In this document: positions 6,362-54,367 of the stretch, piece after piece
How positions within the stretch are numbered: position 1 is the first letter of the stretch
Layout of the letters: each line of letters opens with the position of its first letter
NCBI GenBank assembly: GCA_026770705.1
Contig: JANJGN010000034.1
Location: 13,082,001 to 13,146,000, forward strand
Direction of reading: 5' to 3'
Origin: Isurus oxyrinchus
Lineage: Eukaryota
Length of the DNA stretch: 64,000 nucleotides
Position numbers and translations under genes: made by a program
Notes under the pieces: model-generated
Databases searched by the model: none
What the model was told of the DNA's origin: nothing
What the model saw: only the letters and a program-made list of their open reading frames with translations

Positions 6362-6478
6362 TTAACTTTGCATGTACTTGACATCGGCATACACAGTCGG
6401 TTCCTCCTTCTCTCCGTGTGCAGCAGTGTGCGCCAGTACGTTAAGATCGAGAGCGGCATAAACGATCCCTTGTTCGTC
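6362..6478 (-). CDS. Gene A terminal exon with ITIM (IVYAAL) and ITSM (TVYADV)
   Basis: NAGNAG acceptor ctctag|cag|; DEQGIVYAALDLNVLAHTAAHGEKEEPTVYADVKYMQS*. Confidence 0.85.
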   Translation of the reverse strand, partial: DEQGIVYAALDLNVLAHTAAHGEKEEPTVYADVKYMQS

Positions 6479-24400: not shown

Positions 24401-24618
24401 AACTGTGCTCTTTTCTGCCGATGCTGCCAGACCTGCTGAGTTTTTCCAGGTATTTCTGTTTCTGTTTTTGTTTTGCATTTTACCCTCTTTGGAGCAAGAG
24501 GGAAGCGGGAACGTTTCTTGAAAAATGCATCAAATGCAACATTCATATAGCAAATGTGAACCTTACCAGACAGGAGAAGAGCAATGCACGCAGTAGAAAT
24601 CCACGCCAGCTGAGTCAT
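6362..24618 (-). CDS. Gene A: nectin/PVR-like V-C-C Ig receptor with ITIM+ITSM tail (inhibitory), 8 coding exons, about 400 aa
   Basis: join(complement) 24567-24618, 16887-17225, 15178-15471, 14056-14173, 12127-12275, 10586-10690, 9627-9655, 6362-6478 = 1203 nt. All introns are GT-AG with compatible phases (1,1,1,2,1,1,0) and the frame is open to TAA. Nectin/PVR hallmarks are YPPEVTITGYDGNW and a third Ig domain split by a phase-2 intron. Confidence 0.88.
6605..7275 (+). mobile_element. L2/CR1-clade LINE 3' end with (TGAA)n tail (shark HER1-like)
   Basis: MEYSPLAWM.AAPTTLKKLD; tail ggcaataaatgctgg...cccacatcccgtgaatgaatgaa. Further copies at about 11275-11800, 17658-18500, 19845-20170, 33960-34285, 37100-37752(-), 50780-51005, 63255-63690. 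Confidence 0.82.
8236..9603. repeat. Minisatellite, 32-bp unit gagttagtgcaaacactgcatttaacatRccc with 23-bp deletion variants
   Basis: Direct tandem array of roughly 40-50 units with no spacers. Confidence 0.95.
9627..9655 (-). CDS. Gene A exon 7, 29-bp cytoplasmic exon (ERCVNTSQTQ)
   Basis: Pyrimidine tract + gcatag| acceptor and CAG|gtatgt donor; supplies the required phase 1->0 change. Confidence 0.72.
10025..10370 (+). mobile_element. tRNA-derived SINE (shark HE1-like)
   Basis: B-box-like ggtttgaatcc and a LINE-shared 3' tail; related copies at about 20780-21110(-), 27118-27470, 33545-33915, 35950-36270(-). Confidence 0.75.
10586..10690 (-). CDS. Gene A exon 6, transmembrane (uncharged core)
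   Basis: GKPEFLYMIKIVAPVVGVVLIVLTVALIWRKRRTQ; ccgtag| acceptor, CAAG|gtaatg donor. Confidence 0.88.
12127..12275 (-). CDS. Gene A exon 5, third Ig domain second half
   Basis: LPEGL...NGTWICEAANSIGTGKG; ccccag| acceptor, AAAG|gtaggt donor. Confidence 0.9.
14056..14173 (-). CDS. Gene A exon 4, third Ig domain first half
   Basis: YPPEVTITGYDGNW...LNCEAKANPPATNYTWSR; ctgtag| acceptor, CG|gtaaat phase-2 donor. Confidence 0.92.
14847..15109. mobile_element. About 260-bp TIR element with hammerhead-like cores in both TIRs (copy at 42848-43110)
   Basis: tgtcCTGATGAGtgcaaggtGAAAagctTCaac at 15064-15096 and an inverted copy at 14856-14892. Confidence 0.7.
15178..15471 (-). CDS. Gene A exon 3, second Ig (C-type) domain
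   Basis: ccaag|CA acceptor, T|gtaagt donor; VANCTS.YGNPAAEITW...DGQTVTCIISHP resembles nectin D2. Confidence 0.92.
16887..17225 (-). CDS. Gene A exon 2, IgV domain
   Basis: ctgcag|CT acceptor and TTAG|gtgtgt donor; LPC...W...DQGMYTC IgV motifs; LFPQG in the FG loop. Confidence 0.93.
17658..18500 (+). mobile_element. LINE fragment at the inner end of the left arm
   Basis: Same junction as 37100-37752(-) in the right arm, but more diverged than the arms themselves. Confidence 0.82.
21288..24475 (+). mobile_element. Penelope-like element with an inverted 3' end (pLTR) copy at its 5' side
   Basis: 21742-24475 encodes RT+GIY-YIG with stops and frameshifts; 21288-21741 is the reverse complement of about 24055-24475. 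Confidence 0.92.
24366..24404 (+). ncRNA. Minimal type I hammerhead ribozyme-like motif in the Penelope 3' end
   Basis: agtt-CUGUUGA-a-gggtc/gactc-GAAA-cg-UC-aact; copies at 999-1037(-), 21389-21427(-), 28026-28064(-), 41667-41705(+), 46472-46510(-). Confidence 0.65.
24567..24618 (-). CDS. Gene A exon 1, signal peptide MTQLAWISTACIALLLS
   Basis: ATG, hydrophobic leader, phase-1 donor TCTG|gtaagg; clearly similar to the gene B leader. Confidence 0.8.
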
Positions 24619-27470: not shown

Positions 27471-27961
27471 ACAATTTAAAGTTGACATTAGAGAAAGTGC
27501 AAAATTGATTTTACTTTTCAAAATGCAGCACTGTGAGGTGCCTCACTGCCGGTAGCGACTTGTAAACTCGTGATGATTCAACACTGAATAAACCTTTCTC
27601 TGGCACGTTAACTGACGTTCCTCCTGATGTTCACAGAATCACAGGGTGCAGAAGGGGCCCATCGAGTCTGCACTGACACATGAGAAACACCTGACCTACC
27701 TACTTAATCCCATTTACCAGCACTTGGCCCATAGCCTTGAATGTTATGACGTGCCAAGTGATCTCATATTCTAGGCTGTGGGAACCACTTTGCCCTTACA
27801 GTTTGAGGCTCCCTGCCTCCTTTGTAACCAGATCTACCCAGGCTCCCCAATCATTTGATATGCCATGTTTATGTAAATGATGTGACTGAGCCCTCCACGT
27901 GTTTAATGAGCTTGGCTCATCGATCCCCTCACTTTGAACTTCCTCAGGTTGCCTCATTTCC

Positions 27962-31183: not shown

Positions 31184-31232
31184 ATGGCATTAATGGTTTG
31201 GATGTCGATGGCATATGTTGCACTTCTGTCTG
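31184..31232 (+). CDS. Gene B exon 1, signal peptide MALMVWMSMAYVALLS
   Basis: gaaATGG start context, hydrophobic leader, consensus donor TCTG|gtgagt (phase 1). Confidence 0.8.
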
Positions 31233-34200: not shown

Positions 34201-37200
34201 GCTCACCACCACCTTCTCAAGGGCAACGAGGGATGGGTAATAAATGCTGGCCCAGCCAGCGAAGCCCACATCCCGTGAATGAATATAAACAAATAGAGGG
34301 GCATGAGGAAGCATTTTTTCTTTCACACAGTGAATTGTTGTGATCTGGAAGGCTCTGCCTGAAATGTCGGTGGAAGCAGATTCAATAGGAACTTTCAAAA
34401 GGGGGAAGTGGATAAATACCTGAAGTGGGGAGACTACAGGGAGACTACAGGTAAGCAGCAGGAATATGGGAATTTGAATGATGCAAGTCCTATATTACAA
34501 AACCGACTACACCATAAAAGACCTTCATTAACTGTTAGGGACCTCCTGAGTTTGCGAGAGACCATAAGACCTAGGAGCAGAAATAGGCCATTCGGCCCAT
34601 TGAATCTGCTACACTGTTCAATGAGATCATGGCTGATCTGATAATCCTCAACTCCACTTTCCTGCCTTATCCCCTTAACCCTTGATTCCCTTACTGATGA
34701 AAATTCTGTCTATCTCTGCCTTGAATATACTTAACGACCCAGCCTCTACAGCCCTCTGCGGTAAAGAATTCCACAGATTAACTACCCTCTGAGAGAAGAA
34801 ATCCCCTCTCATCTCTGTTTTAAATGGGTGACCCCTTACTCTGAGATTATACCCTCTGGCCCTAGACTCTCCCATAATGGGAAACAACCTCTCAGCATCT
34901 ACCCTGTCAAGCCACCTAAGAATCTTCTTTGTCTCAATTAAGGCGCCTCTCATTCTTCTAAACTCCAATGAGTACAGGCCCAACCTACTCAATCTCTCCT
35001 CATAAGAAAATCCCTCCATACCCAGGACCAACCTAGTGAACCTTCTCTGGACTGCCTCCAATGCCAGTATATCTTTCCTTAGGTAAGGGAACCAAAACTG
35101 TTCACAGTATTCCAGATGTGGTCTAACTTGTGCCTTGCATAGTTTTAGCAAGACTTTCCTATTTTTATAGTCCATTCCCCTAGAGGTCAAACTATTTCTT
35201 TAATGACCTATCATTGCATTGTAAATTCCATAATAACTCAAGGATTGTTACATTATGCAATACAGCATACATTCATACTGATTTCTATTTTGACAATGGC
35301 AGATCAGGATTTTGATGCATTGACGCATATGTAGCCAAGAGTTCACAATACTGAAGAGAGATTAACTTATTAAATAGATAATATCACCATAGTTTTAGGC
35401 TAAGGGGTGGTAGATTTAAATCAGAGATGAGGAGGAAATATTTTTCTCAAAGGGTCATGAATCTGTGGAGTTCACTACCTCAGAGTCCAGTGGATGCTGG
35501 GACGCTGAATAAATTTAAAGTGGAGATAGATAGATTTTTAATTAGTAATGGGTTGAAAGGTTATGGGGAGAAATTGGAGTTGAGGCCAAAATGAGATCAG
35601 CCATGATCGTATTGAATGGCAGTGTAGGCTCGAGGGGCTGAATTGCCTGCTCCTGCTACTAGTTCTTATGTTCCTCCTTTCATTTCTTTAGTTTAAGAGG
35701 TTGGCCAATTCTGGAAGGTCTGATGACAGGTAAAAATGTGCCTTGGACTATGAAGCTATTGGGTGTTATCACATCAGCCACTTAGTTGCAATGAAGTAAA
35801 TGGAACTTGAGATCACATTGGAAATACACCGGGTGACCAATGCTATATATCCCATTATTTTTCCATAGAGCCTCCTAACAGTCCACTGAGTCTGGGTATA
35901 GCCTGCAGGACACATACATTGGGTTCACCGCCTTGGGATTTTTTTTTGACCCATTCATGGGATGTGGGCATCGCTGGCTCGGCCAGTATTAATTGGCCAT
36001 CCTGAATTGGCCTTGATCAAAGGGCATTTAAGAGCCAATCACATTGCTTGTGTGTCTGGAGTCACATGTAGAGCAGGCCAGGTAAGGAGGGCAGATTTCC
36101 TTCCCTAAAACAACATTAGAGAACGAGATGGGTTTTGACAACAATCCACAATGGTCATCATCAGACTTCGAACTGCAGGTTTTTATTGAAATCAAATTCG
36201 ATTGTCTGCCATGGTGGGATTCGAAAACTGGTCCCCAGAGAATTACCCTGGGTCTCTGGATTACGAGTCCAGCTGCAGTGTCAACTCTCACCAACAGTAA
36301 AACACCTTCTTCAGCCGCATTCTATGCCCCAGGTTACACCTCCCACTCGCACAGGCCAACTGCAAAGTGACAGACACTCACGGCTCTTACTGACTGGGTG
36401 AATGAGTCAGACACAGTTTCCAATTCTGGGAATGCCTCAGTGATGAATGGGTCATATTGCCAGTCCTTAGTCACTGCTGCCCGTCTACCCACAGTCCATC
36501 GAGGGTCTCAGGGTCTTTATAGGCAGCTCGATTTTCTGCACATTGCTACATTTCGATCCAGCCCTGCATCTCCCTCAGAAGCTGGAAATCCGACCATTTC
36601 CTTTAGTCCTTCCCCCACCCCCAACCCCCCCCACCCCCTCCCCCAACACAACCAACACCCATCACCTGGACCATCTTGTAAAGGATGTTGACTTCTTCCA
36701 CCACATGTAGGTGTTAAGTACAAGCTGCACCTTACTGAGGGCAAGCATGTTTTAAATTGAAAGCCATCGCATTACTTCTTTTATTCCTTCCAGTCCCTCA
36801 TTGCCTTCTCCACTCTTTTCTCAATTTTCTCAGCCCTCTCTCTCTCTCCCTTTCCATAACATCATCCACTATCTGTCCTCAATAGTTTGTTTTCGTGCTG
36901 TGTTTTCCATAGTTTCCCTGCACGGTGTCCGAGTATTGCCCTGCACATTACAATCACCAGGTTCACTTTCCAGGGTCACCTCCCATCTTCAACCAATCCC
37001 CAAAACGCTGCCTTCAGCCAAACACTTGCCCCAGGATACAGTTCACAGAACTTTAAAGGCACAGAAAGAGGCCATTCAGCCCATCGTGTCTACATCAAGT
37101 CAGGATGGTGAGTGGCTTGGAGGGGAATTTCCAGGTGGTTGTGTTCCCATCTATCTGCTGCCCTTGTCCTTCTAGATGGCAGTGATCATGAGTTTGAAAG

Positions 37201-40200
37201 GTGCTGTCGAAGGAGCCTTGGTGAGTTGCTGCAGTGCACCTTGTAGATGGTACACACTGCTGCTACTGTGCGTCGGTGGTGTAGGGAGTGAATGTTTGTG
37301 GATGGGGTGCCAATCAAGTAGGCTGCTTTGTCCTGGACGGTGTCAAGCTTCTTGAGTGTTGTGGGAGCTGCACTCACCAAGGCAAGTGGGGAGTATTCCA
37401 TCACACTCCTGACTTGCACCTTGTAGATGGTGGACAGACATTGGGGAGTCAGGAGGTGAGTTACTTGTAGCAGGATTCCTAGCCTCTGACCAGGCCTTGT
37501 AGCCACAGTATTTATATGGCTGGTCCAGTTCAGTTCCTGACCAATGGTAACCCCCAGGATGTTGATAGTGGGGGATTGAGTGCTGGTAATGCCACTGAAC
37601 ATCAAGGGGAGATCGCTGGATTCCCTCTTGTTGGAGATGGTCATTGTCTGGCACTTGTGTGGCATAAATGTTACTTGTCACTTGTCAGCCCAAGCCTGGA
37701 TATTGTCCAGGTCTTGCTGCATTTGGACATGGTTGGCTTCAGTATCTGAGGAGTCTTACGTAAACGCCAAAAATATTAATGAAAGCGAAATCGCCCAAGG
37801 AAAAATGAGTTCTTTATTTAGCAGATGAAAAGCAACATCGGAACGGGGGGAGGCCATTCAGCCCCTCGATCATGCGGCGCCATTCAGTTGCTCTGCTTGA
37901 CATTCAGTACTGCTGGTGCCAACGCGGCTGAATATCGGGCCGAGCGGAGAATGGGCGAGCCACGGTATATCGCACGTTTAACTCGAGCGCCAGGGACCAG
38001 ATTTCCCCCCCACCCCCGGGCGGAGCCTTGTGGGCAGGCTGTCGGACAGGAGTAGCTGCACTTTCTTACTCCTCACACATGCCTGTTGAGGATTTAATGT
38101 TCCTTGGGGGCCTCTGATTCGGATTGAGGAGAAATCAGCTTCTAATGTGTTTCCTAACTCCGCCAATTATTGTTGTTCCTGCAGCTACAACCAGTAACCA
38201 CGTTTCAGCTGTGACCCTTACCGCTCTTGTTGGGACTGAGGCACTGCTTCCATGCCGGATATCACTAAACAACTCAAATTTGACACAGATCCAATGGAAA
38301 AAGGGCACTGAGGATAAATCCTTCGTAGTGTATAATCCTAAATTCGGGATATCATTCAGAGATGAAAACTACTCCAGTCGGGTCGTTTTCAGAAACCATT
38401 CACTACTGGACGGATCAATTCTATTGAAGGCTCTGGAGATGGAGGATCAGGGAATGTATACGTGCATATACACGCTATTCCCTCAGGGAGTAGTTGAGAA
38501 ACCAATGAAACTAACGATTTTAGGTATGTATTCTACATGGAGCATTGTTCACGTGAAGATTCATCTGTGGGTTAACGTGATGTTCATGCAGAGAGGGGGA
38601 GGGACTGAATTTTGGGTTGTCCATCCGGGTGTAAACTTAATACCCCTGCAATTATCATCAAAACTGTTGTGTAATTCTAACACTTTAACCTAGTCACATT
38701 CTAGCTCCGATTCATTATTTTATCATAGAGCTATTACTGAGATATTTAGTGTTTGTTTAGCAGTTGCGAGTGAAGCTTTTATTTATGGGAAGGTTGGGAG
38801 TGTCAGACACAAACGAGTAAAGTTTATCATATTCGTCTTCTCCCATTATTGATAGCCACATTCTGCAAAGATATCAGAGCCATTGACGACTCTCAGCAAT
38901 CAATCTGTACCAATTAATCTCTAACAGGTACAGACATGAGGCAAGAGAAATCCCCATCCCCAGCGCTGGAGAACTTTGGGAAGCAGATCTACACCGCAAG
39001 CATGTTGCAGTGATCCCGCGTCACTTCACACACTCTGTCAGATACAGTACCCCTCCCTGTATTCTTCACCCCACTGCAGCTCTTTGACGCTCTCTCCCAC
39101 TTCCTCGCCGTCCACAATCGATCCCCCATCAGTCGCTTTCATGGTCGATTCATGGATCCACCCCTCTGAGTCCTGGTCTGACCTGCAGGTCACAGGCATT
39201 TGTTTCACTGTCCTGGGTTTCAGTGCCACCTCTTACCCTCCAGCATGGTTCCAACACTCTTCCTTCAATATTCTCCCTCCACCTGGACCCCTCCCTCTGG
39301 ATTCTTACCTTCTCTTGATCTTTTCATTGAGAACTGTCGGCACGACATTAGTCGTCTCAATTTCTCTGCTCCTCTCACCCATTCTAACCTGTCTCTCTCT
39401 GAACTTACTGCACTCCATTCTCTCAGGTCCAACCCTGACATTGTCATCAAACCCGCTGACAAGGGTGTTGCTGTTGTTGTCTGGCGCACTGACCTCTACC
39501 TCGCGGAGGCTGAGTGGCAACTCGCAGACACTTCCTCCTACCTCTCCCTGGACCATGACCCCACCACTGAACATCAAGCCATTGTTTCCAGGACTGTCAC
39601 TGACCTCATCTCCTCTGGGGATCTCCCTCCCACAGCTTCCAACCTGATAGTCGCCCAACCTCGGACGGACCGCTTCTACCTCCTACCCAAAATCCACAAA
39701 CAGAACTGCCCCGGTAGACCGATCATGTCAGCTTGCTCCTGCCCCACAGAACTCATTTCTCGTTATCTTGACTCCCTTCTCTCTCCCCTTGTCCAGTCCC
39801 TTCCCACCTACATCCGTGATTCCTCTGACACCTTACATCACATCAACAATTTCCAGTTCCCTGGCCCCAACCGCTTCCTCTTCACCATGGACGTCCAATC
39901 CCTCTACACCTCCATCCCCCACCAGGATGGTCTGAGGGCCCTTAGCTTCTTCCTCAAACAGAGGCCCGAACAATCCCCATCCACCACTACTCTCCTCCAT
40001 CTGGCTGAACTTGTTCTCACGTTGAACAATTTCTCCTTCAACTCCTCTCACTTCCTCCAAATAAAAGGTGTGGCTATGGGTACCCGCATGGGCCCCAGCT
40101 ATGCCTGTCTCTTTATGGGGTATGTGGAACATTCCTTGTTGCAGTCCTACTCCGACCCCCTTCCACAACTTTTTCTCCGGTACATCGATGATTACTTCAG

Positions 40201-43200
40201 TGCCGCTTCATGCTCTCGTCGGGACTTGGAAAAATTTATTAATTTTGCTTCCAATCTCCACCCCTCCATCATTTTCACGTGGTCCATCTCTGACACTTCC
40301 CTTCCCTTCCTTGACATCTCTGTCTCAATCTCTGGTGATAGACTGTCCACCAATATCCATTACAAACCCACCGACTCCCACAGCTACCTCGACTACAGCT
40401 CCTCACACCCCGCTTCCTGTAAGGACTCCATCCCATTCTCTCAGTTCCTTCGCCTCCGTCGCATCTGTTCCGATGATGCTACCTTCAAAAACAGTTCTTC
40501 TGACATATCCTCCTTCTTCCTTAACCGAGGTTTTCCACCCACGGTCATTGACAGGGCCCTCAACCGTGTCCGGCCCATCTCCCGCGCATCTGCCCTCACG
40601 CCTTCTCCTCCCTCCCAGAAACATGATAGGGTCCCCCTTGTCCTCACTTATCACCCCACCAGCCTCCGCATTCAAAGGATCATCCTCCGCCATTTCCGCC
40701 AACTCCAGCATGATGCCACCACCAAACACATCTTCCCTTCACCCCCCTTATCGGCATTCCGTAGGGATCGCTCCCTCCGGTACACCCTGGTCCACTCCTC
40801 CATCACCCCCTACTCCTCAACCCCCTCCTATGGCACCACCCCATGCCCACGCAAAAGATTTAACACCTGCCCCTTCACTTCCTCTCTCCTCACCGCCCAA
40901 GGGCCCAAACATTCCTTTCAAGTGAAGCAGCATTTCACTTGCATTTCCCCCAACTTAGTCTACTGCATTCGTTGCTCCCAATGTGGTCTCCTCTACATTG
41001 GAGAGACCAAACGTAAACTGGGCAACTGCTTTGCAGAACACCTGCGCTCTGTCCGCAAGAATGACCCAAACCTCCCTGTCGCTTGCCATTTTAACACTCC
41101 ACCCTGCTCTCTTGCCCACATGTCTGTCCTTGGCTTGCTGCATTGTTCCAGTGAAGCCCAACGCAAACTGGAGGAACAACACCTCATCTTCCGACTAGGC
41201 ACCTTACAGCCTTCCGGACTGAATATTGAATTCAACAACTTTAGGTCGTGAGCTCCCTCCCCCATCCCCACCCCCTTTCTGTTTCCCCCTTTCTTTTTTT
41301 TCCAATAAATTATATAGATTTTTCTTTTCCCACCTATTTCCATTATTTTTAAATATTTTAAAATCTTTTATGCTCACCCCACCCCACTAGAGCTATACCT
41401 TGAGTGCCCTACCATCCATTCTTAATTAGCACATTCGTTTAGATAATATCACCAACTTTAACTTTAACACCTATGTGTTCTATTGTACCATTGTCATTGA
41501 CATCTTTTGATGATCTGCTTCTATCACTGCTTGTTTGTCCATACAACCACACCCCCAACCCCCCACCCCCCAACCCCCCCACAACCTCTCTCTCTCTATC
41601 TCTCCGCCCCCCACACACACACCTTAAACCAGCTTATATTTCAACTTTTTCTTGGACTCGAACTCAAGTTCTGTCGATGTGTCATGAGGACTTGAAACCT
41701 CAACTCTTTTCTTCTCCGCCAGACCTGCTGAGTTTTTCCAGGTAATTCTGTTTTTGTTTTGGAGTTCCAGCATCCGCAGTTTTTTTGTTTATAACGCTTC
41801 CCTCAGCCGCACACTAGGCCCCCCAAATTTCGCCTCCCAGTGGCACAGGCCAGTCCTTGTGGCACTTGCTGATTGGGTGATCAAGTGCCAATGATACAGT
41901 TTCGATCATGGCCATTTTTCTCAGTCCTGAAGCTGGAACATCGCCAGCCTTTTATTTGCCATCGCCGCAAAGACACCCCCTTCCCCTCATAAAGATGGGG
42001 ACAGGGCCCAGGGCCAAGCCAGTTTCTCACACGTTGCTGCATTTCTACCCACCTACCCCACCCTCTCAAAACCCAGTGCTCCGCCCATTTCCTTTGGTCC
42101 TTCCGCACCCAGCTGCCCCCACAACACCCGTCGCCAGTGCCAGTCCCATCCAAGACCCATCCCTTTGGCACCATATGTAGAGCATAAGCACAAGTTGGAT
42201 CTGACTGAGAGCAATAACGTGGCTGAACTGAGACCAATCGCTTTACTTCTTATATTCCTGCTCATTCCTTCCATTCTCCCATTGCCTTTGTCCCTCTCTC
42301 CTCACTTTCTTACCTCGGTCCCCTCTTTAACCGTAACGTCATCCATGATGCAGTTGGGCCATTTGATGGAGACATGTAAATATTGACAGGATCTGGTTTC
42401 TGTATTTTTTTTGCTCCGGATTAATTGCAAGCTCCTGACGTGTTTGAAACGGACGTTGAGTTAATTTCTTGTTTATCTCCCCAAGCAATTCCCAGTAACA
42501 GGGCGATCCCGGTTCCCGCACGGACTGCTGATTCAGAAGTGCCAGTGGCAAATTGTACTTCAACCTACGGGAACCCAGCAGCCGAGATCACGTGGATTTC
42601 CGGTTCCCATGGAAACTATACAACAACCCTGATTGAAAACAACAACGGGACAACAACTGTTATCAGCCTGTACAAGATGGCACCTAATGACGATGATGAT
42701 GGTCAAACAGTGACGTGTATTATCTCCCACCCAGCATCAAACAGCACAGATACTTACACGATAAAATTATTGATCCTCTGTAAGTTCCGTATACAAAGAC
42801 AATTAATTCCAATAGTCGCTTGGTAGGACAGAAGTTGAGTATTGCAGAAAAAAGAGCACGGTGAAGCTTTTCACCTTGCACTCATCAGGACACTTCACTA
42901 TAATACCGATATAAGGAGAAAACAACGATTTATACTGCATGTGAAGAGAGTGCTGGTTGGTTGGCAAGCGGACTCTGATTGGGCTCTGTGTAATAATATA
43001 TGTAGCTTCCTGTACACACAAACACACACACATTGTTTTCCCTTCATTTCAGTATTCTTGCAAAGTGTCCTGATGAGTGGAAGACAAAAAGCTTCCACGT
43101 CTCTTTTTTCATCAATACAAAAATAATGTAATCCAATTCAAAGTGCGCTGCCGTTGAGTAACGAGACAGCAATCTCCTCCCCTAACTAGAGAAGTGTTAA

Positions 43201-46200
43201 ACTTCCCTCACTGGCTGAATTGACATTTTCTGGATATCCGCGATTCCAGCATTGCTGGGCCGGTTCAATGTGACCGGTTGTGGTTGATTCGCCAGCCGCA
43301 CATATTAAATAATTCAAAAGCGATCATTTTCTTCGGGAGGTTAGAGAGCTTGTATCATTTTCTGGGCGTAAAGACTTGTTTGCAACAATTCGGGGTCACT
43401 TCAACTTTGGATGGTTAGGCTGAGTGGGGTGTTTTCCAGCGTGGAAGTTGCTCTATCAATGCAGTCGGAAGTTGCAGTTCAGAATGAACCTCATGGCCTG
43501 AATCATGGGTTATCGGAGCAAGCAGCGACTTTCAAGCGACATGTTAAACTGTGGTGGTTTTCCTTTGAGGTTATCGTTGCTTTACACAGGACATGTGATT
43601 CACTTAACATGAAAGGCAAAGACTGTTTTAAATATGTGGACGGGCCAGAGCTACTGACCTACCATTTCCTGCCAATCTGGCCTGTTGTACAAATGCACCA
43701 ATGTGGATTCTCTACTGTGTTGGATGTACTGACCACATGATCACAATAATTTCCTCTGTAGATCCACCAGAAGTGACCATAACAGGTTATGATGGCAACT
43801 GGAGTGAAAACACTAGGGATGTTACTCTCAATTGCGAGGCCAAAGCCAATCCCCCAGCAACAAATTACACTTGGTCACGGTAAATATGCGCTTCATTTAT
43901 TAAGAATTGCATTGTGTATATTTTCAAAACTGTGTAGATCATGGATCGCTCAGATCTTTTCATACAGTTTGTGATCTGGTTGTTGAACTGGAAATAGGCC
44001 CCTCCGCACGGGTTTTGTTTACATGTCTCTGCTTTAAGGAAAACATTCGTGAAAAAGCTGTGGTCATGCGAAGGTGTTTAACAAGAACCTTCACTGACTG
44101 ACTCTGTACCTCAGCGGCCTTCAGAAAGGCCAAACCGAGAATCTGTGACCCGTGGGCCGGTAGATACAGATTGGCTGAGCAGCAAGAGGCCATTTGCTGA
44201 ACTAGTGTGGTAATAAGTTTTGCATACTTGAGATGCAGAAAGGCCAACTGATCGCAAATGAACACCAACACACTTCCAATTTTATGCCTCGCTATTTGGG
44301 TTCGCGGAAAAAATATATTGTGTTAAAAACCTGGAGAGCCATTTGAAATGTGTCTCCTACAAAATACAACTGAAACCCAAAATAACCACTTGTATCTTGG
44401 GGTAATTTTTTCCTTGGGTCAGTTAAGGACATGGTGGGTAGAGTGAACATCGTGAGTGACCAGACACAGCATTAAGAATGAATCTGCCTCTGCTTGCCAA
44501 GCTAGCAGAGATGGAGAAGGGGAAAATGTAGTGTGTGTAAGATCATCATGTAGGCAATATTTATGAATGAGATGATGGGGGTAGTGGGGGGGCGATGGGA
44601 TTGAATGGCTTTAATATGGGGGTAAATATTGACCACAATACAGGAGTGTGTGTAGAATGGGCCAAGCAGCCCAGGTGGAAAAGAGCTGATAAACCCAGCC
44701 CTGGGGAAAGGCCCCAAATGCAGGAGGACTTCAACAAACAGCGATGAGTGGTACTGTTGTATGATGTTCTGTACCAGAAATCTTTCAGATTATTTACATT
44801 ATGGGCGACTTTGGGAAATGTCAAAATATAGGATTGGTCGCCCATGATAAGTCGTTTGTTATCACCATCTCCTGAGTGGGCTATTTGACATTGTCTAGTT
44901 TCTTCACTGGTTTTCTTCAATCCTCCACCATCCACATCTCAGTGCTATCCACCCATTCAGTTCTTCATCTTCCTCTTCTCTTTTTACCTTCAATTCCTCC
45001 TTCAGTTGAGGACACGTCTTTGTTTCCGATCTCTGTACTTGCTCATCATTCTGTCTCCGCCTGTACTTGGCAACCCTTTTGATTCCTGAACTTCTGCTCT
45101 TGACCTAAGCCACCCTTTGACCTTCCTGTCCATCCAGCTGATTCTGAGCATCCTCCGCCAAACCCACATTTCAAAATCCCTAATCCCCCTCTTATCCTCC
45201 TTCCACAGAGTCCAAATCTCACATGCAATGGATGCAACACTCTACGCTGTTGACCGTACCAGATATTTTCTTTTCCAGCTATATGCTGATGCTTTTGGAT
45301 TTACAGGGGCTACTTAAATCACTGTTCATGCCTCTTGCTGTAGCTAATCTACCTGGATTGCATTCTTGGGTATAACTTTGGTGTTTATCATCAAGTCAAT
45401 GTACTTGAAATTGTCCCTCTATCTCGGTACTTCCAATCTTGACTTTCCCATTGCTATTTAGAGCCAGAAAATTGGTCTTCAACTCATTTATCTCATGTAT
45501 ATCATTCATGCCCTACTATACACCATGAGTAACATCCCATACCGTCCAGTGATACAATCTGGTGGAGCGTATCTGCTCTTTGGAGGCCAGAGCTAATATT
45601 CATCACCTAGATTTAGTCACCAAGGCATTTCTTACATGTGCATCGTTGGCTCTCCCCAGGTTACCAGAAGGACTGGAGGCCAGAAATGCAAGTGTGTTCA
45701 TAAAGAAAGTGAGCAATTTAATGAATGGGACCTGGATCTGTGAAGCTGCCAACTCAATTGGGACAGGGAAAGGCAAACTGGAAATAATCTTAAAAGACTC
45801 CCCTAAAGGTAGGTACAAGTTAATAGAGCGATAGAAAGGGCCAAATTCCCTTTCATTTTGTTAACGAAAGCGTAAGTGCTGGAATTTAATAAACGGCCAC
45901 ACATGAAATTAGATGATTGGGATGATGAGTTCACTTTGAGATCTGTGGAAATCATGGAGGGTGCTATAAAAACGCAACTTCTTTATTTCAACGAGCGATA
46001 GATCCTCAGACCCCAAATGCCGGTCATGTTTTCAGGACCCACCATTTGTCCATCTTTATCCTGAATCTTGTCAAGTTCCTGTTGCTTTATAAACTCTTGA
46101 AAACCAGTTGCCACTGTGAAGATTTTTTAAAAATTCTTTCACGGTTTGTGGGAATCGTTGGTTGGGCCAGCATTTATTTCCCGCCTCTCGTCACCCTTGA

Positions 46201-49200
46201 GAAGGTGGTGGTGAGCTGCCTTCTTGAGCCGCTGCAGCCCCTGTGGTGTAGATACACCCACAGTGCTGTTAGGGAGGGTGTTCCAAGACAGGTGATTCAC
46301 TTAACATGAAAGGCAAAGACTGTTTTAAATATGTGGATGGGCCAGAGGTACTAACCTGCCATTTCCTGCCACTCTGGCCTGTTGTACAAAAGCACCAATG
46401 TGGATTCTCTACAAAAGCAGAATTACCTGGAAAAACTCAGCAGGTCTGGCAGCATCGGCAGAGAAGAACAAATTTGACGTTTCGATTCCTCATGACCCTT
46501 CAACAGAACTAAATAAAAATAGGAGATGCCTGAAATACAAGCTGGTTAAAGGGGGGGGGGGGGGGGGGGTGGGGGGGGGGGCAAGAAAAGTGGGGGTGGG
46601 GGTGGTTGTAGGGACAAGCAAGCAGTGATTGGAGCAGATAATCAAAAGATATCACAGACAAAAGAACAAAGAGGTGTTGAAGTTGGTGATATTATCTAAA
46701 AGAATGTGCTAATTAAGAATGGATGGCAGGACATGCAAGGTACAGATAGCTCTAGTGGGGGTGGGGTGAAATAAGACTAAAAGGGCATAAAAGGTATAGA
46801 TTTAAAAATAATGGAAATAGGTGGGAAAAGAAAAATCTATATAAATTATAGGAAAAACAGAAGGGAGGGGGGAGAAACGGAAAGGGGGTGGGGATGGAGG
46901 AGGGAGTTCAAGATCTAAAGTTGTTGAACTCAATATTCAGTCCTGGAGGCTGTTCAGTGCCTAGTTCGAAGATGTCAATTTTGGAAGGTGCTGTCTAAGG
47001 ATCCTTGGTGAGTTGCTGCAGTGCATCCTGTAGTTGGTACACTCACTGCTGTAACTGTGCATCGGTGGTGGAGGGAATGAGTGTTTGTGAATGGGGTGCC
47101 AATCAAGAAGTCTGCTTTGTCCAGGCTGGTGTCGAGCTCCTAAGTGTTGTGGGAGCTGCACTCAACCAGGCAAGCGGGGAGCATTCCATGACACTCCTGC
47201 ATTGTGCCTTGTAGATGAAGTATATTAATTATATATGAAAGTACTTTTCAAATAGCCTCTTTCATTTCCATAGGGCTAGAAAGGCAGATTGTTCTGCTCA
47301 TTTGCCTGCAATTACAGGATTGCTTGGGCTCCCCGAGTACAGGGAATTTGGTTCATTTTGAGGACATATCTGAAGGATTTTAATGAATTCCCTCACATGA
47401 GACAATGGAATACCATGAGCTATTTCCTGTTGATCATCCTGGCCTAATTCTAAGGGCCATTGAAAAAGTAATTAATCAGCACATGAATCGGGATGTAATT
47501 GCATTTCCCTTGAGTTTTCCCTTCAACTGTTTCCTCATTAAAGCTTTTTTCTTATTCTTCCATGGGATGTGGGCATCGCTGGCTGGGCCAGCATTGATTT
47601 CCCAGCCCTAATTGCCCTTGAGAAGGTGATGCAAACAACGTCCCCCACCAAACCTGGTAATTGAAGAGGCGCGAGGGAGAGGTGCAATAATTACTGTCCA
47701 CAATCAGTGTACATGACTGACCACCGAGCATATACCGTCAGCTCCAATTCCCGCTTTCAATGACATTGTCCTTATTTCTTGCAAAGCTATTTCCGTAAAT
47801 GATACTGCTGTATTTGTCACAGTTTCCCCGCCCCCCATTGTGTCCGAGTATTGCCCTGCACATTACAATCATCGGCTTCATTTTCCAGGCCTGCAGGATC
47901 GCCTCCCATCTTCAACCAGCCCCAAAATCTCCGTCTTCAGCCAAACAGTTGCCCCAGTTCACAGAATCACAGAATTTTGACAGCGCAGTAGGAGCCCATT
48001 TGGCCCATCGAGTCTGCACTGACTCCCCCTCTACAGTTCGCACCGGTCGCCTCAGGCCAACAACAGCGGTGCAGATCCTCACCCTTCAATGTTAACCGGA
48101 GTGTCAGACCTCACGTCTTCTGCATCAGGAGGATTTCTCAGTCCCAGCATTGAAATGCCGCCGCCATTTTGTTTATTACTGCCCCATATCCTGCCCCAGC
48201 CCCTCCCCCAAAACCATAGTCCACCATTGGTGGCAGAGCCTTCAGTCAACTCCAGCCAAGCTGTCTTGCAATACACCATTACACATTCCTCAGAAGCTCC
48301 TTCCTTTCCAATTCTGTTTCGGCCTCTCTCCTCATCCCCACATGCAGCTTGCGAAGGCTCTTAGCTACTTGCCACATGAAATGCATGAAAGTGGTATCCC
48401 CCACATTAAAAAAGTGTCCCTATTGCCCTCCCCAAGCCCAACTAACAAGAGATTGTTCCTGCTTTTCCTTCGTTTCATCCCCAAGGCTCTTTCCTTCCAT
48501 CTTATTCTTCCTTCCTTGCTTCCATCCCATTTCTTGCAGCGATGAATGAGTGAAGGCCTACGAGGCAGCAGCTGGAAGTGATTGGGCTCAGGACCTTGGT
48601 TTCACAAGCGTTTGCTGGTTGCCCAAGGTTGTGATGGTTTTACCGCGTCCACCACCGCCCAATATGTCAGGCCTAACTCAATTGATCCCATCACTGCATC
48701 TGATACAGGAAACAACAACTGCCCACCCCGTTGGATAAAAGAAATTAATAACAGAAGCAAGGTTATTGACAGGAAACTCAGAAAGATGATGTATTTTTTT
48801 ATTACTAACTTGTACCATTGTTTTACTTCCTGTTCGTTTCTATTTGATGATTTCGCAGATCATGGGAATGGAAAGCTAATCAACCCATGTGTGACATTGA
48901 GAGTAGTGGTGTTTGCTCTTTCCACGTTTCTCATTGTTCTATTCATCAGGCGAAAATGCAGACCAGCAGGTAAATCATCAGAAAATGAAAGGTGAAACCA
49001 AATACCTAAACGACTACAGATATTTCAACTCGGCGCTGGTGTTTAATAGTTCCACCATAATATCTTTCAACTTTCTTACGTTACTCTGGTCTTACCTTCC
49101 CACCAGCTTGCTCTCTCATTCAATTCAATTTCCGAGGGTCGGCTATTTGCTAATATTCTACCACAAGCCTGCAAACTATGTAGTTTACACTTCCTCCCAG

Positions 49201-52200
49201 CCTGCTCCCTATATAGACTCTCCTCTCTTCTCCCAGCGTCTTCATCTCCATTGCTCCTTTACTTATGATGCATCCTCCCATGCTGCTGCTTCTGATGGGT
49301 ATGTCTTCCTTCTTCCTCAGCTGAGGATCCCCACTACCACCTGACTAATTGACAGGGCCCCTAACTATGACCGCCCCTTTTCTCTCTCGTCAACTCACCC
49401 CCTTCCCCTATCAGCACCCCCTGCCCCCCTACACCAAAGCTGCTATAGGATTCTACTTGCCCTTATCTTTCACTCCACTATCTGCTACAATCCAACAGGT
49501 CATTGTCTGCCATTTCTGCCACCCCCAGTAGGATACCACCACCAAGTGCATCTTCCCCTCCCCTTCCCTTTGAGCATTTTGAAAGGGACCAATCCCTTCG
49601 TGACACCCCAGCTCACTAATCAATGACTTCCCCCACTTCCCGCCACACCAAATCCAGAAGATGTACCACTTGCCTTGTTACCTCCCCACATCACCCCACC
49701 CCCCCAACCCTTTCCCAAATTCCAGGGCTGCAAGTGCTTTTTCAGGGGAAACAGTGATTTATTTACACCTTTTTCAATTTGACATATTGCCTTTTTGCTG
49801 CTTACAATGCAGTCTCCTCTAAATCGGGCGACCAAAAGCACATTGACGATTGCTTTGTACACCACGTCCATCCAGTCTGCAACTGTGTTCCCCAATTCTT
49901 GTCATTTTAATTCTCCGCTCCACTCCCACTTTGACCTCTCTGTCCTCAGCCTGCTGCAGTGTTGTAATAAGGCCAATGGAAGTCAGAGGGGAAGCAATAT
50001 ATTTTTCGATTTACACCCGCCTGGACTTAATTTTGAGTTCAGTAATTTCAGATCATAACCTCTGCCCCTCTTTCTTGGTCAGCAGCTGTTGGAGATCTTT
50101 CTGCTGTTACCATTTACACCTCCTCTACAGCCTTCTTTTGTCTCTTTGCATGCCCCACTGCCAACCACTTTTACTTATTGTCAACGTTCCTTGTGTCATT
50201 TAATCACATAAGTCGCTTTAAGCTTGTTGCTTCTGTCACCTTTTCCAGCCCTGACAGACGGGGCAACAGTGGAAATGTTTGATCTGTTTCTGCCTCCACT
50301 GGAGCTGCCTGGCCTGCTGAGAATTTCCAGCAATCTCTGCCTTTATTTCAGATTTCCAGCAACTGCAGTATCTTGCTTTTGCACCCTCAATCAGAATTGT
50401 TGAGCTGGTTTACACCAGCGCATTCCTGCCTTTCATCAGGTGAAACAGCAGATGCGAATGTGCAATAACACAAGTCTCCTAATTTATATTTACAGCAGAA
50501 ACCTCTGTCAACGTTCCCGTTCAAAGAAAGACAATTGAGCAGGTAATTTAAAGCTACATTAATAGTTAGTAATTTCAGCTCTTTACTAAACATTTCACTT
50601 CTACTCTTGACAGCCTCAACTGTTTGCACCCAACCGGAACCACATGTTAGCAGTTGGTGTTTGAGACTGTAGCATTTAGCACAAATGGTTCACGTCTTAG
50701 TGACATCCCAGACAGTTACCTATGGAATATGTCAGTGTTCTTTACCACTAAAAATATTGTTCCAATGGCTTTGCATCTTTCCTCCAAGCCACTCGCCATC
50801 CTGACTTGGAAATATATCAGCCGTTCCTTCACTGTCGCTGGGTCAAATCCTGGAACTCCCTCCCTAACAGCACTGTGGGTGTACCTACACCACAGGGACT
50901 GCAGCGGCTCAAGAATGCAGCTCACCACCAGCTTCTCAAGGGCGGCTAGTGATGGGCAATAAATGCTGGGCCCAGCCAGCGAAGCCCATATTCCCATGAA
51001 TGAAAAGTAAGAAAAAATAGCAGAAGAAAAATGACACAGCTTTTCATTGATATAAGACCATAAGACCATAAGACATAGGAGCAGAAATTAGGCCATTCGG
51101 CCCATTGAGTCTGCTCCGCCATTCAATCATTGCTGATAAGTTTCTCAATCCCATTCTCCGGCCTTTGATATGAAAGCAGAAAATGCTGGAAAAATTCAGA
51201 ATGGACTCGAAACGTTGACTCTGCCCCTCTCTCCACAGATGCTGCCAGACCTGCTGAACTTTTCCAGCATTTTCTGTTTCTCTTTCAGATTCCCAGCATC
51301 CGCAGTGTTCAGCTGTTCGTTGACTGTCACCGGGACACACAGATTTGAGATAATTGGCAAAAAACCAGTGAGATGTTAAGGTTTCTTTTTCCTCCATGGA
51401 CCAGGCTGTTATGATCAGAAAGGGATGCTGAATAGGCTGTGGAAACAGATTCAATAGTAAATTTCAGAAGAAAATTGGGCAAATGTTTCAAAAGGAAACT
51501 CAGCAAGGTTATGCAGAAAGAGTAAGGGAGTGGGACTAATTAGGGAGAACTCTTTCTAAAGGCTGGCACAGGCAGAACAGGCTGAGGAACAAGCTTCGGT
51601 TCAGTGTGAATTCATGATTCTGTGAATGATTCTCATTTACTACCCAGAGAGTTGTTGATGTTTTTGTCCCCCTGTTCATTGACTGTGCTGTACCTGCCTG
51701 TCCCCATGTCGTCTTAGCTCTTCTGTTGATGCGAATGCCTGAATGTTCCTGGATTGAACCGTATTCTCTTTATTTTCCAGGATTTGTCAGATGTGAACGC
51801 CACTTACATGGTAGGGTGGAAGACATATTTATTTCAAGTGAGACTTTATTTAGGCAAATGAACATTATTGAGTTACTAACGAATCACACTTGTGGCAACT
51901 TCCCACAGGGCCTGAACTTAGCAGAAGAATCGGTCTACAGTGAATTACAGAGGTATAATTTATTCTGCTTCATTAACTGTGAGCCAATCCAAAGACAACA
52001 TGAATATATCTGACTGTCGTCTATCCATCTCTGCATCTATCACTTATCTATCTATCTATCCATCTATCTATCTATCTGTCTCTCTGCCTGTCTGTCTGTC
52101 TATCTATCTATCTGTTTGTCTATCTATCTGTTTATCTGCCTATCTGTCCAACTGTCTGCCTGTCACTCTGTCTGCCCCTCTGTGTGTCTCTCTGTGTGTC

Positions 52201-52587
52201 TCTCTGTCTGTCTGTCATGCCTGTCTGTCATGTCCATCTGTCTGCCTGTCTCTCTGTCTGTCTGCCTTTCATGTCTGTCTGCCATGCCTGTCTGCCTTCC
52301 TGTCTATCATGTCTGTTTGTTTGTCTGTCTATCTATTACGTATGTCTGTTTGTCTTTCTATCTATCATGTCTGTCTATCGAGCATGACTGTCCATCTCTT
52401 GGACTGCCTGTCTCCCACTCTCTTTCTCTCTCTCCCCCTCTGCCTGTGAAAGATTCTTTCAGCCCCCTTCCACTTCCAGCCATGATCTTAGAAGTAACTA
52501 CTGTGCTGTTCCCATTTACTTTGCACAGATTGTTTTTCAGGCAATGACTCGAGTAACATTTGGTTTAAAATCTCTTTTTTCAGATAA
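31184..52587 (+). CDS. Gene B: nectin/PVR-like V-C-C Ig receptor with TM arginine and intrinsic ITAM (activating), 10 coding exons, about 394 aa
   Basis: join 31184-31232, 38185-38523, 42486-42779, 43762-43879, 45660-45808, 48859-48969, 50496-50542, 51781-51810, 51909-51952, 52584-52587 = 1185 nt. All introns are GT-AG, the phases are compatible and the frame ends ...YSELQR*. Confidence 0.83.
34560..35190 (-). mobile_element. CR1-like LINE 3' fragment
   Basis: VRPHLEYCEQFW.PYLRKDILALEAVQRRFTRL. Confidence 0.88.
38185..38523 (+). CDS. Gene B exon 2, IgV domain
   Basis: 339 bp like the gene A V exon; 11 amino-acid differences; donor TTAG|gtatgt. Confidence 0.93.
39258..41790 (+). mobile_element. 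Young Penelope-like element with an uninterrupted RT-GIY-YIG ORF, in intron 2 of gene B only
   Basis: ORF 39200-41251; the empty site in the other arm is at about 16135-16150. Confidence 0.94.
42486..42779 (+). CDS. Gene B exon 3, second Ig domain
   Basis: One amino-acid difference (N/S) from gene A; intact splice sites. Confidence 0.92.
43762..43879 (+). CDS. Gene B exon 4, third Ig domain first half
   Basis: Protein identical to gene A exon 4. Confidence 0.92.
45660..45808 (+). CDS. Gene B exon 5, third Ig domain second half
   Basis: Protein identical to gene A exon 5. Confidence 0.9.
46413..46975 (-). mobile_element. Penelope-like 3' end / pLTR fragment
   Basis: GLNIEFNNFRS C-terminus plus the same tail as the other copies. 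Confidence 0.85.
48859..48969 (+). CDS. Gene B exon 6, transmembrane exon containing Arg
   Basis: ttcgcag| acceptor, GCAG|gtaaat donor, phase 1-1; DHGNGKLINPCVTLRVVVFALSTFLIVLFIRRKCRPA. Confidence 0.82.
49180..50380 (+). mobile_element. Old degenerate Penelope-like relic
   Basis: Decayed matches (accaccaagtgcatcttcccctc; GLNFEFSNFRS; gatttccagcaactgcagta tail). Confidence 0.7.
50496..50542 (+). CDS. Gene B exon 7, cytoplasmic (AETSVNVPVQRKTIEQ)
   Basis: NAGNAG acceptor tacag|cag|, donor CAG|gtaatt, phase 1->0; shares E-x-x-VN / TGTCAAC with gene A exon 7. Confidence 0.68.
51781..51810 (+). CDS. Gene B exon 8, first half of ITAM (DLSDVNATYM)
   Basis: Strong acceptor ctctttattttccag| and donor ATG|gtaggg; read in phase 0. 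Confidence 0.78.
51909..51952 (+). CDS. Gene B exon 9, second half of ITAM (GLNLAEESVYSELQR)
   Basis: cttcccacag| acceptor after a 98-bp intron; donor AG|gtataa. Confidence 0.78.
52020..52440. repeat. Degenerate (TCTA)/(TCTG) microsatellite
   Basis: Low-complexity tetranucleotide array in the last intron of gene B. Confidence 0.9.
52584..52587 (+). CDS. Gene B putative terminal exon (A TAA stop)
   Basis: ctcttttttcag|ATAA completes the AG|A Arg codon, then stop. Confidence 0.55.
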
Positions 52588-54367
52588 GCTGCTTGCAAGA
52601 ATGAACACAGCTCAGCCAGACCCCAGACAGTGTTCAACTCTGAACTTTGTCCTGATCTTTCAACATTATTATACAAACCCTCTTACAGAAATTCTGTGCT
52701 TAATGACGTAGACATAGGTAATTGTCATTCCTAGATCTCTGCTTATTTAGTGGTGCAGTAAATTTCAATGCCTTTAATCAAGATTGACATCCACCCAATG
52801 GGATGTCTCTACTGCTTGCAAATGAATGGAACTCTTTCTATTACCCGCCTTTCTCAATATCAGACCATTGCCATATAATGTATAACAGCTTTTTAAAAAA
52901 AATGAGGCACAGGGACCAATTCCACAATTGAATTGTGCATAGCTCTCACACCTGGGCTTGGACAGGGTGCAGAGGGTTAGGGGGGCAAGTGGGGGGAGGG
53001 GGGGCGTTGAGGAGTGGGGGAGGGGGTAGCTATTTTGTGAGGAAAGTTTGGACAAGCTAGGCCTGTATCCATTGGAGTTTAGAAGAATGAGAGGTGATCT
53101 TATTGAAACATATTATATCCTGAGGAGACTTGACAGGGTAGATGCTGAGAGAACATTTCCCCTTTTGGGAGCCTCTAGATCTAGTGGACACAGTTTAATA
53201 AAAGAGAGTCTCCCATTTTAGATGGAGATGGGAAGATTTTTTATTCTCTCTGAGAGCTGTGAATCTTTGGAGCTGTCTTCCCCAGACAGCATTGGAGGCT
53301 GGGTCAATGAATGTTCTTAAGGCAGGAGTAGATTCTTGATTAACAAGGGGGTCAAAGGTTATCAGGGGTAGGCAGAATGTGGAGTTGAGGTTCCAGTGGG
53401 ATCAGCCATGATCTCACTGAATAGCAGAGTAGGCTCTAGGGGCTGAATGGTCTACGCCTGCTCCTAATTCATATATAGAAACAGAAAGTGCTGGAAAAGC
53501 ACAGCAGGTCTGGCAGCATCAGCATAGTGCTATTGTCACTGTGTTGGGGTTCCAGAGATACAGGGTTCCAATCTCTGACGAAAACCATTGCTGAATGTTA
53601 TGAAAACCCAGCTGATGTGATGCCCTTTAGGTAAGGAAATCTGATATCCTTACCTTGCCTAGCCTGCAGGTTGACTCTGAATGAGGGCAAATAAATATTG
53701 GCCTTGCTAGTGGTGCCCACTTCCCATGAATGAATTTTTAAAAATGTAGCCAGTATTCTGGAATTCCCAAACAGCCCACCTCCGACAACCCCCACCCCCA
53801 ACCCCCGCACCCCCCCACGCCCCACCTCTGCCCCCCCACCACCCCCCCCCCCCCCACCCCCCCCCCCCCCCCCCACCACCCCCCCCCAACCCCCACCCCA
53901 TCATTCTAGGTCACAATCACTTGCTTCCCTGTCACCAATGACCAAAGTAGTCTCTTGCCCACTTGTAGCTGCATTTCCTGTTGAACTGCTTTTCCCGCCC
54001 CCAAAAGGGAGCATATATTATCGACATTGGTCAGAACCATTCCCATTGGAAGGGTGAAGAGCGCTTTCATCCCAGCACTAGGGACAGTTTGATCAATTTG
54101 CGGACAGTCAGCTATGAGTCCTTCCTTATACTTAGGTTCTAATTGGATCAGCCATTGTTCACCCAGGTCCGATCAATGTGTAATCTTGGCTGGAGCAAAT
54201 TGTTGTCATAGAGAGAGAGCGAGGGAGAGAGAACACAGAACCAGCGAGCTTGGTGTAGTGGAAATGACACAACTGTTTTTCAATAGGAAAGAGGGGGAGG
54301 AATGAAGGTCCTGTTCACAGATAGAAAGCAAAAGACACACAAAGAGTGGCAGAAAATGTTAGAGCAT

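Follow-up and report, generated by a model that had tools for sequence, protein, structure and literature searches.

A shark nectin/PVR-like inhibitory/activating gene pair whose ectodomain similarity, probably maintained by conversion, ends at a splice acceptor

When two genes share a nearly identical stretch that stops at a splice site, what keeps the stretch alike, and what sets its end? The question arises in a 64,000-nt window of Isurus oxyrinchus (contig JANJGN010000034.1, 13,082,001-13,146,000, forward strand; positions below are window-relative), which carries two genes, A on the minus and B on the plus strand, head to head with 6.6 kb between their start codons. The exon models (Table 1) show open frames and canonical GT-AG sites throughout and encode 401 aa (A) and 394 aa (B); white shark and basking shark database proteins agree with both. 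Each ectodomain comprises a V domain, a CD80-like C2 domain and a third immunoglobulin (Ig) domain spread over two exons. At the motif level, the A tail carries an ITIM (immunoreceptor tyrosine-based inhibitory motif) and a switch motif (ITSM) within one exon, and the B tail carries a YxxL-x7-YxxL pattern of the activation motif (ITAM) type, its first YxxL cut by a phase-0 intron (51811-51908). Based on sequence comparison, we suggest that A and B very probably represent an ancient inhibitory/activating pair of nectin/PVR-like receptors, kept matched by recurrent conversion of their ectodomains.

The shared block and its 3' edge

In self-BLAST, the block shared by A and B appeared as inverted segments pairing 10692-11509 with 47797-46980 (92.8% identity), 11646-16157 with 46289-41793 (98.3%) and 16145-18299 with 39267-37096 (93.5%). 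Identity within the block is patchy (86-100%), with identical runs of up to 530 nt and flanks at 86%. The B copy is interrupted by a 2540-nt Penelope-like insertion in intron 2 and by an insertion/replacement of ~690 nt in intron 5.

The original prediction had this homology end exactly at the acceptor of A's transmembrane (TM) exon, with the AG lost from B, and the strings it quoted are present at 10720-10684 (A, minus strand) and 47769-47805 (B, plus strand). Toward the 3' edge, ungapped identity was 97/100, 99/100, 95/100, 37/40, 20/20 and 20/20, then 16/20 over the final 20 nt; past the edge, it was 7/20 and 4/20, and 29/105 over a stretch as long as the TM exon of A. By maximum likelihood, the change point fell on the G of A's acceptor AG (support interval -2 to +1 nt), and the post hoc chance of a match within ±2 nt in A's 1436-nt intron 5, assuming uniform placement, is p = 0.0035. 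While the position of the edge was thus borne out, its sharpness had been slightly overstated: the final 19 nt are 15/19 identical (79%) versus 96.8% across the preceding 530 nt, suggesting that the recently converted tract ends ~20 nt before the AG. B indeed lacks the AG and similarity stops there, but since nothing aligns beyond it, the missing AG most likely reflects a junction rather than a point mutation.

No remnant of A's TM exon was detected in B, either at 47798-48858 or at 47798-53000 (145/200 and 154/200 shuffles scored equally high), and a sensitive BLAST of this exon against the window returned only the self-match; the prediction had likewise envisaged no degenerate A-type TM exon past the junction. 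Near A, no remnant of a B-type TM exon was found (180/200 shuffles scored equally high). B employs its own TM exon about 1 kb further on, as proposed, starting at 48859 and thus 1061 nt beyond the block edge. Aligned globally, the two TM exons scored 55.5 versus 32.8 ± 8.6, a value reached by 7 of 500 shuffles; composition may account for this score, and homology of the two exons was rejected as only weakly indicated. The block was also correctly described as covering the ectodomain only and excluding the leader and signalling exons, but its continuity is broken by the B insertions and its 5' end is not pinned to an exon. There, identity is 86.5% within a shared long interspersed nuclear element (LINE) and ends ~6 kb from both leaders.

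Relic Ig exons were not found outside the modelled exons, including in B intron 1, and Rfam and ARAGORN scans gave no matches. An additional B exon near 50614 was rejected, as inspection revealed no in-frame donor and orthologues lack it. A cryptic in-phase AAG acceptor at 47784-47786 was not supported (eighth among 200 AGs when scored with a weak matrix built from 12 sites), and the 64-codon open frame behind it is unremarkable, being present in 425 of 4971 random stretches. This AAG lies 12 nt upstream of the junction, in phase with the 64-codon frame (47784-47980), and could conceivably yield a secreted B.

Grouping and divergence of ectodomains and tails among sharks

Database proteins from named sharks and a ray were typed by their tails as A-type (at least 11), B-type (at least 11) or third-paralogue (at least four). 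The protein searches were word-indexed and non-exhaustive; species were compared at the protein level, and the DNA comparison was between window A and window B. In a profile search of 50%-identity representatives, the named shark proteins ranked first. An ITSM is present in 11/11 and an ITIM in 9/11 A-type proteins, and the ITAM pattern in 8/11 B-type proteins, the exceptions being two truncated tails and one tail with V for L. Both genes were present in seven species including the Isurus window, among them the squalomorph Pristiophorus, and in the other species database records give equal scaffold lengths for A and B.

In each of the seven species, A and B are 88-100% identical per Ig domain and 18-28% identical over TM and tail; in the window, the V domains are 90% and the C domains 99-100% identical. 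Orthologous tails are 46-90% identical across species. Among lamniforms, interspecies identity is 73-81% for the V domain, 85-95% for the first C domain and 81-90% for the tail. In five other species pairs, protein similarity likewise extends through the last Ig exon and breaks off at its end or within a few residues of it, and the leaders appear, by eye, gene-specific across species.

A comparison of ectodomain and tail trees had been set beforehand as a test, with ectodomains expected to group by species and tails by gene, and this is the pattern we obtained. A and B were sisters in 5/5 species pairs in the V tree (four starred) and in 5/6 pairs in the C-domain tree (four starred), where Hemiscyllium fell into an unresolved trio. 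In the tail tree, B formed one clade (100/100) spanning Galeomorphii and Squalomorphii, and the window A tail was sister to Carcharodon (100/97), as expected for a lamniform shark. Approximately unbiased (AU) tests rejected two groupings: B as a clade in the C-domain tree (p = 5e-8), and window A together with window B as a clade in the tail tree (p = 2e-56). As ectodomains group by species and TM regions with tails by gene, we suggest that long-term recurrent conversion maintains the pair. Isoform duplicates (P0016, P0023), tail-less proteins (P0019, P0020, P0030, P0032, P0041, P0044), P0031, teleost proteins (P0033-P0040, P0042, P0043) and P0029 were excluded from the trees; two truncated Mustelus tails were left out of the tail tree. 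Of P0007, the final 400 aa were used, and P0003 was trimmed after its ITAM exon.

The best solved relative of the V domain is nectin-1 (E = 9e-18; predicted fold with a template-modelling score of 0.83), that of the second domain PVR (E = 3e-12), and CEACAM was absent among the 60 V-exon and 26 second-domain PDB matches listed. F98, P99 and G101 of an FPxG motif are almost invariant, fitting the V-domain (F/Y)PxG motif which, along with A-x6-G and (V/I)(S/T)Q, is given as typical of the nectin/PVR family in PMC4749091. As to the other two motifs, A-x6-G is found as such in Carcharodon and Cetorhinus and as V-x6-G in the window, where the remaining motif reads LTQ; in Stegostoma it reads ITQ. 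True nectins (nectin-1 to -4) are marked by an afadin-binding C-terminal motif. The C-termini of A and B lack it, and the database label 'nectin-1-like' therefore does not denote orthology. Judged by sequence, A/B is nectin/PVR-like, with family motifs that match in part, and neither CEACAM nor true nectin. A separate Heptranchias protein, P0031, terminates in AVYV.

At position -3 of the first ITAM tyrosine, window B has Asn rather than D/E, and the B protein of Chiloscyllium punctatum has Asp; because the acidic residue is absent, we refer to the B tail as ITAM-type, not as a strict consensus. An arginine in the TM segment of B was considered as an adaptor-binding residue and rejected: it occurs in window B only, the same position is Gly in Carcharodon and Cetorhinus B, and 0/11 database B-type TM segments carry a charge.

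The V exon stands out from the rest of the block. Between window A and B, 13/339 nt differ in this exon versus 60/4928 in the core introns (Fisher p = 7e-4). The differences amount to 11.5 non-synonymous and 1.5 synonymous in the V exon, compared with 1 and 3 in the C exons (non-synonymous excess of V over C exons, p = 6e-5). Strands were assigned from a predicted V structure (mean predicted local distance difference test score 87.9), in which the C-C'-C'' and F-G regions make up 50 of 112 residues. Counted by residue position, irrespective of side-chain orientation, 9/11 A/B differences in the window (p = 0.014) and 30/43 across five species pairs (p = 8e-4) lie on the C, C', C'', F and G strands and intervening loops. 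In addition, the window B V domain has lost one N-glycosylation site that A keeps.

We lean, by a little, toward B being a decoy or activating counterpart directed against whatever pathogen or ligand takes advantage of A; changes in the V domain that permit escape, located on its CC'C''FG face, would then be copied periodically from one gene to the other. Alternatively, the pair may tune responses to a host ligand rather than a pathogen, through CD96/TIGIT/CD226-like or homophilic nectin contacts. The nectin/PVR-like ectodomain with its FPxG motif speaks for this possibility, as the family mediates host cell-cell signalling (PMC4749091). Yet between lamniforms V diverges faster than C domains and tails, and the changes cluster on the binding-face strands, both of which would fit a fast-evolving ligand better; we thus regard a host ligand as conceivable, if rather doubtful.

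Several database proteins extend this picture. A third paralogue in sharks and a ray (P0021, P0022, P0025, P0028) stands outside the converting pair and has lost the ITIM/ITSM tyrosines in 3/4 tails. The database isoforms P0001, P0018, P0004, P0012, P0023, P0024, P0026 and P0027 omit either the TM exon of A (in Carcharodon and Stegostoma) or one or two Ig exons, which suggests that in-frame exon skipping is frequent and gives rise to soluble forms. In Heptranchias, residues 1-280 of P0007 represent a further single-V receptor with two tyrosine motifs, fused ahead of an A-type gene, suggesting a larger inhibitory receptor cluster. Another Heptranchias perlo protein, P0183, bears a B-clade TM+ITAM tail (59% identical to Pristiophorus B along 79 aa, and grouped with the B proteins at 100/100) behind an ectodomain that is LAG-3/CD4-like (LAG-3-like, E = 5e-7), not nectin-like, and its scaffold length equals that of Heptranchias A and the third paralogue. 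P0183 may represent a portable TM+ITAM cassette or a chimeric model; if the model is real, the cassette was shuffled at the same intron, which would support an origin of B by exon shuffling. A reported teleost ITAM-bearing G6F-like molecule is a candidate relative.

Possible origins of the block edges

How might conversion stop at an acceptor? Inverted, head-to-head genes could form a loop in a single chromatid and so pair; PMC5112662 and PMC13278318 argue for conversion by this route, in which inverted genes pair intrachromosomally. Repeated conversion would homogenize the V-C-C exons and their introns in each species, leaving leaders, TM exons and tails to diverge by gene, and A's acceptor would be the last tolerated position. 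Both TM exons being in frame and of phase 1-1, a tract that crosses the edge would either double B's TM segment, by carrying the AG and the 105-nt TM exon of A into B, or remove that of A, by destroying A's acceptor with B sequence. The non-homologous repeat DNA abutting the junction would block further extension, and the last ~20 nt may erode because tracts seldom reach them. That such a selective wall at the acceptor causes the exact 3' edge is an explanation to which we give a modest preference.

The surroundings of the B block point to another possible origin of its edges. A direct repeat of ~200 bp, X/X', flanks the block, X ending 2 nt before it and X' starting 6-9 nt after it. X is the best match in the window for X' (repeat fragment from 47803-47806), and in both an old repeat joins a CR1-like tail at a junction that is missing from two other copies of the repeat. 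The repeat parts of X and X' are 116/137 identical (85%), compared with 84/121 and 85/129 (66-69%) against another copy. The unconverted relics also seem alike in age, with 85% identity for X/X' and 86.5% and 85.9% for the LINE flanks. It is as if one event could have set both edges, the interior being refreshed by conversion later on. An A-derived block may have entered B in a single insertion or replacement by template switching, duplicating the ~200-bp flank, with the coincidence at the AG due to microhomology or to chance plus a selective filter. By itself, a single insertion leaves the match within 2 nt of the AG unexplained, and B intron 1 retains no relic of an older B ectodomain. Moreover, a third site near 4150 has a similar 10-mer beside a CR1-like tail, and the insertions may instead have been independent, at a preferred target. 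We entertain this origin only tentatively; it is compatible with recurrent conversion of the ectodomains and differs solely in how the edges came about.

The direct repeat is one of several observations that weigh against our interpretation, as it suggests that the edges were fixed by one rearrangement and not by gradual creep. In addition, pN of the V exon (0.044) does not significantly exceed pS (0.019; p = 0.31, window A versus B DNA; pN and pS, non-synonymous and synonymous differences per site), and the strand enrichment is mainly lamniform (Stegostoma 1/4, Pristiophorus 5/10), with species pairs that are not fully independent. The A tails did not resolve as one clade, although an A clade was not rejected (AU p = 0.39). 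Besides lacking the acidic -3 ITAM residue, window B has Ser in place of the YxN tyrosine of 9/11 database B proteins. Finally, among the matches listed from our non-exhaustive searches, neither Heptranchias nor Heterodontus yielded a nectin-type B.

Polarity at the 3' edge might also have been the reverse: the terminal intron sequence could derive from B and have overwritten A's intron up to A's acceptor, in which case B never had the AG. A loose alignment takes the repeat that follows the junction ~50 nt upstream, inside the shared stretch, and a repeat reaching that far would imply B-to-A polarity; the AG 12 nt upstream in B is missing from A, as expected of an acceptor under selection. However, the upstream extension lacked significance, its score being reached in 87 and 73 of 1000 dinucleotide shuffles and in 90 of 300 in an anchored test, and we consider this polarity unlikely.

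Taken alone, the ~99% core identity of the window looks recent, as if a one-off exon shuffle or segmental duplication had made B without ongoing conversion, or B had been remade in each lineage. This is largely refuted by the trees and AU tests: the B tail is one clade over both superorders, yet the ectodomains are near-identical within each of seven species, and identity varies between 86 and 100% in one block. Such a history is thus very improbable, and of the two processes named in the original prediction, exon shuffling or conversion, recurrent ectodomain-restricted conversion most probably maintains the similarity, whereas shuffling would apply only to B's ancient origin or to a one-time reset of the block edges.

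We attach equally little probability to reverse transcription of the B block from a 5'-truncated lariat of an exon-skipping gene A transcript, running from leader donor to TM acceptor. Such a lariat would hold intron 1 to intron 5 with the Ig exons unspliced and end at the TM acceptor, predicting a block in sense orientation to B, pinned at the AG, ragged within intron 1 and flanked by a duplication, which would have landed ahead of a portable TM+ITAM cassette like that behind the Heptranchias LAG-3/CD4-like ectodomain. The exon phases are all compatible, and there are database isoforms without V, C or TM exons; against this, the terminal G and a poly(A) are absent, target-primed insertion would hardly leave a 200-bp duplication, and the database proteins considered include no isoform joining leader to TM exon. 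An assembly or annotation artefact (a locus duplicated in silico or chimeric gene models) can practically be dismissed even though the database includes several models of partial isoforms and one fused model, P0007, given that 60 substitutions in introns, large indels and a retroelement unique to B set the two arms apart, that in no species pair are the A and B ectodomains identical, and that the exon choices match independent species.

The repeats in and around the block are elements that we take to be CR1, L2/LINE and Penelope, names whose sole backing is matches to reverse transcriptase (RT) and, weakly, GIY-YIG. Four big Penelope-like copies (936-3141, 22009-24467, 27959-29613 and 39257-41796) share 85-94% identity, and the copy located in B intron 2 contains a 689-codon open frame. 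A 129-nt copy of B intron 3 (43587-43715, 94%) lies at 46284-46412, fused to a Penelope-like end, and splits the shared block. A minisatellite of ~1.4 kb (32/23-bp; 8226-9604) starts directly past the donor of A's first cytoplasmic exon. Downstream of B, an assembly gap (N run) begins at 58862, clear of both genes, and an intronless open frame of a rhodopsin-family G-protein-coupled receptor at 61507-62601 on the minus strand (PF00001, E = 2.6e-19) may serve as a synteny marker.

Table 1. Features of the A/B locus (window-relative positions)
Feature	Position	Strand	Basis or remark
Gene A leader exon	24567..24618	minus	ATG, phase 1; matches Carcharodon/Cetorhinus A leaders
Gene A Ig V exon, nectin/PVR-like	16887..17225	minus	exon model, PDB matches, structure prediction
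Gene A CD80-like C2-set exon	15178..15471	minus	exon model, PDB matches
Gene A third Ig domain, first half	14056..14173	minus	exon model
Gene A third Ig domain, second half	12127..12275	minus	exon model; database orthologues match
Gene A TM-exon acceptor AG	10691..10692	minus	homology with B stops at its A
Gene A TM exon, 105 nt, phase 1-1, absent from B	10586..10690	minus	model and BLAST
Gene A first cytoplasmic exon	9627..9655	minus	matches P0001/P0002
Gene A last coding exon, ITIM (IVYAAL) and ITSM (TVYADV)	6362..6481	minus	model, motifs
Gene B leader exon	31184..31232	plus	exon model
Gene B Ig V exon, differs from A at 11 amino acids	38185..38523	plus	exon model
Gene B C2-set exon	42486..42779	plus	exon model
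Gene B third Ig domain, first half	43762..43879	plus	exon model
Gene B third Ig domain, second half	45660..45808	plus	exon model
Gene B TM exon, 111 nt, phase 1-1	48859..48969	plus	matches P0003/P0004
Gene B first cytoplasmic exon	50496..50542	plus	model and database proteins
Gene B exon with first ITAM tyrosine, phase-0 intron inside YxxL	51781..51810	plus	exon model
Gene B exon with remaining ITAM (second YxxL)	51909..51952	plus	exon model
Gene B last coding bases and stop, inferred	52584..52587	plus	C-terminus same as Carcharodon B
Shared block, A copy	10692..18299	minus	60/4928 nt differ in core introns; ~86% identity in LINE flanks
Shared block, B copy	37096..47797	plus	self-BLAST
Eroded edge with junction, paralogous to the acceptor region of A	47779..47798	plus	15/19 identical, stops before G
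X, old repeat fragment with CR1-like tail	36896..37094	plus	stops 2 nt before B block
X', direct repeat of X	47806..48018	plus	162 identities, 76% gapped; starts 6-9 nt past junction
B-only Penelope-like retroelement in intron 2	39257..41796	plus	RT and weak GIY-YIG
B-only intron 5 insert, replaces ~136 nt of A's LINE	46289..46979	plus	self-BLAST

Relation to known receptor pairs and meaning

Conversion that keeps paired receptors matched has precedents. Like the shark pair, Xenopus and mammalian CEACAM pairs of the CEACAM1/CEACAM3 type combine ITIM/ITSM and ITAM tails in cis and opposite transcriptional orientation (PMC5112662, PMC2832619); CEACAM ITAMs also have a YxxL split by a phase-0 intron (PMC2832619), and in these pairs ligand-binding exons are converted, with non-synonymous changes on the CC'C''FG face (PMC5112662, PMC2832619). 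In X. tropicalis ceacam, a conversion tract is reportedly confined exactly to an exon plus splice consensus (PMC5112662), so that the A/B edge alone is not new in kind. The shark pair differs in its nectin/PVR-like ectodomain and in a block of three Ig domains with introns (7.6 kb) instead of an N exon; residual homology of mammalian CEACAM pairs, moreover, often takes in the TM exon. SIGLEC11/SIGLEC16 are likewise head to head (about 9 kb apart), with a multi-kb ectodomain block converted per lineage (PMC5701461). However, Siglec-16 signals via an adaptor, whereas shark B has its own ITAM; and that pair is of catarrhine-primate age with an unmarked 3' boundary, whereas the shark pair spans both superorders and has its edge at an acceptor. 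Merohomogenization of KLRC, KLRI, KLRB, Ly49 and PIR produces the same grouping of ligand-binding exons by species and signalling exons by gene, with patchy tracts, but in other protein families, in mammals only and with tracts of a few hundred nt (PMC3210942).

Shark A/B shares the V-C2-C2 ectodomain of PVR/CD155 and nectins, as judged from PDB matches, and differs in lacking an afadin-binding C-terminus. An ITIM occurs in a PVR isoform. To our knowledge, mammals have no ITAM-bearing PVR/nectin paralogue, and none was found in our literature searches. Unlike adaptor-coupled activating receptors of the PIR-A/LILRA type, B-type proteins have no conserved charged TM residue. Neither a nectin/PVR-like ITIM/ITAM pair nor a shark pair was found in full-text searches that covered literature mostly outside subscription journals, so that an earlier mention is possible; the accessible parts of PMC4016189, PMC13262535 and PMC10768021 contain no description of such a nectin/PVR-like pair. 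The mechanism is thus known from CEACAM, Siglec-11/16 and KLRC, and the shark nectin/PVR-like system is apparently undescribed.

The sharp edge offers a clean case for asking whether selection on splicing sets conversion boundaries. The locus extends ITIM/ITAM pairs matched by conversion to the nectin/PVR-like family and to sharks. Being present in both shark superorders, the pair may rank among the longest-maintained, primate Siglec-11/16 and rodent KLR pairs being far younger. Mammalian nectins and PVR are virus receptors, as the titles of PDB entries indicate, and the A/B pair points to an old, still active arms race at the nectin-like V domain in sharks.

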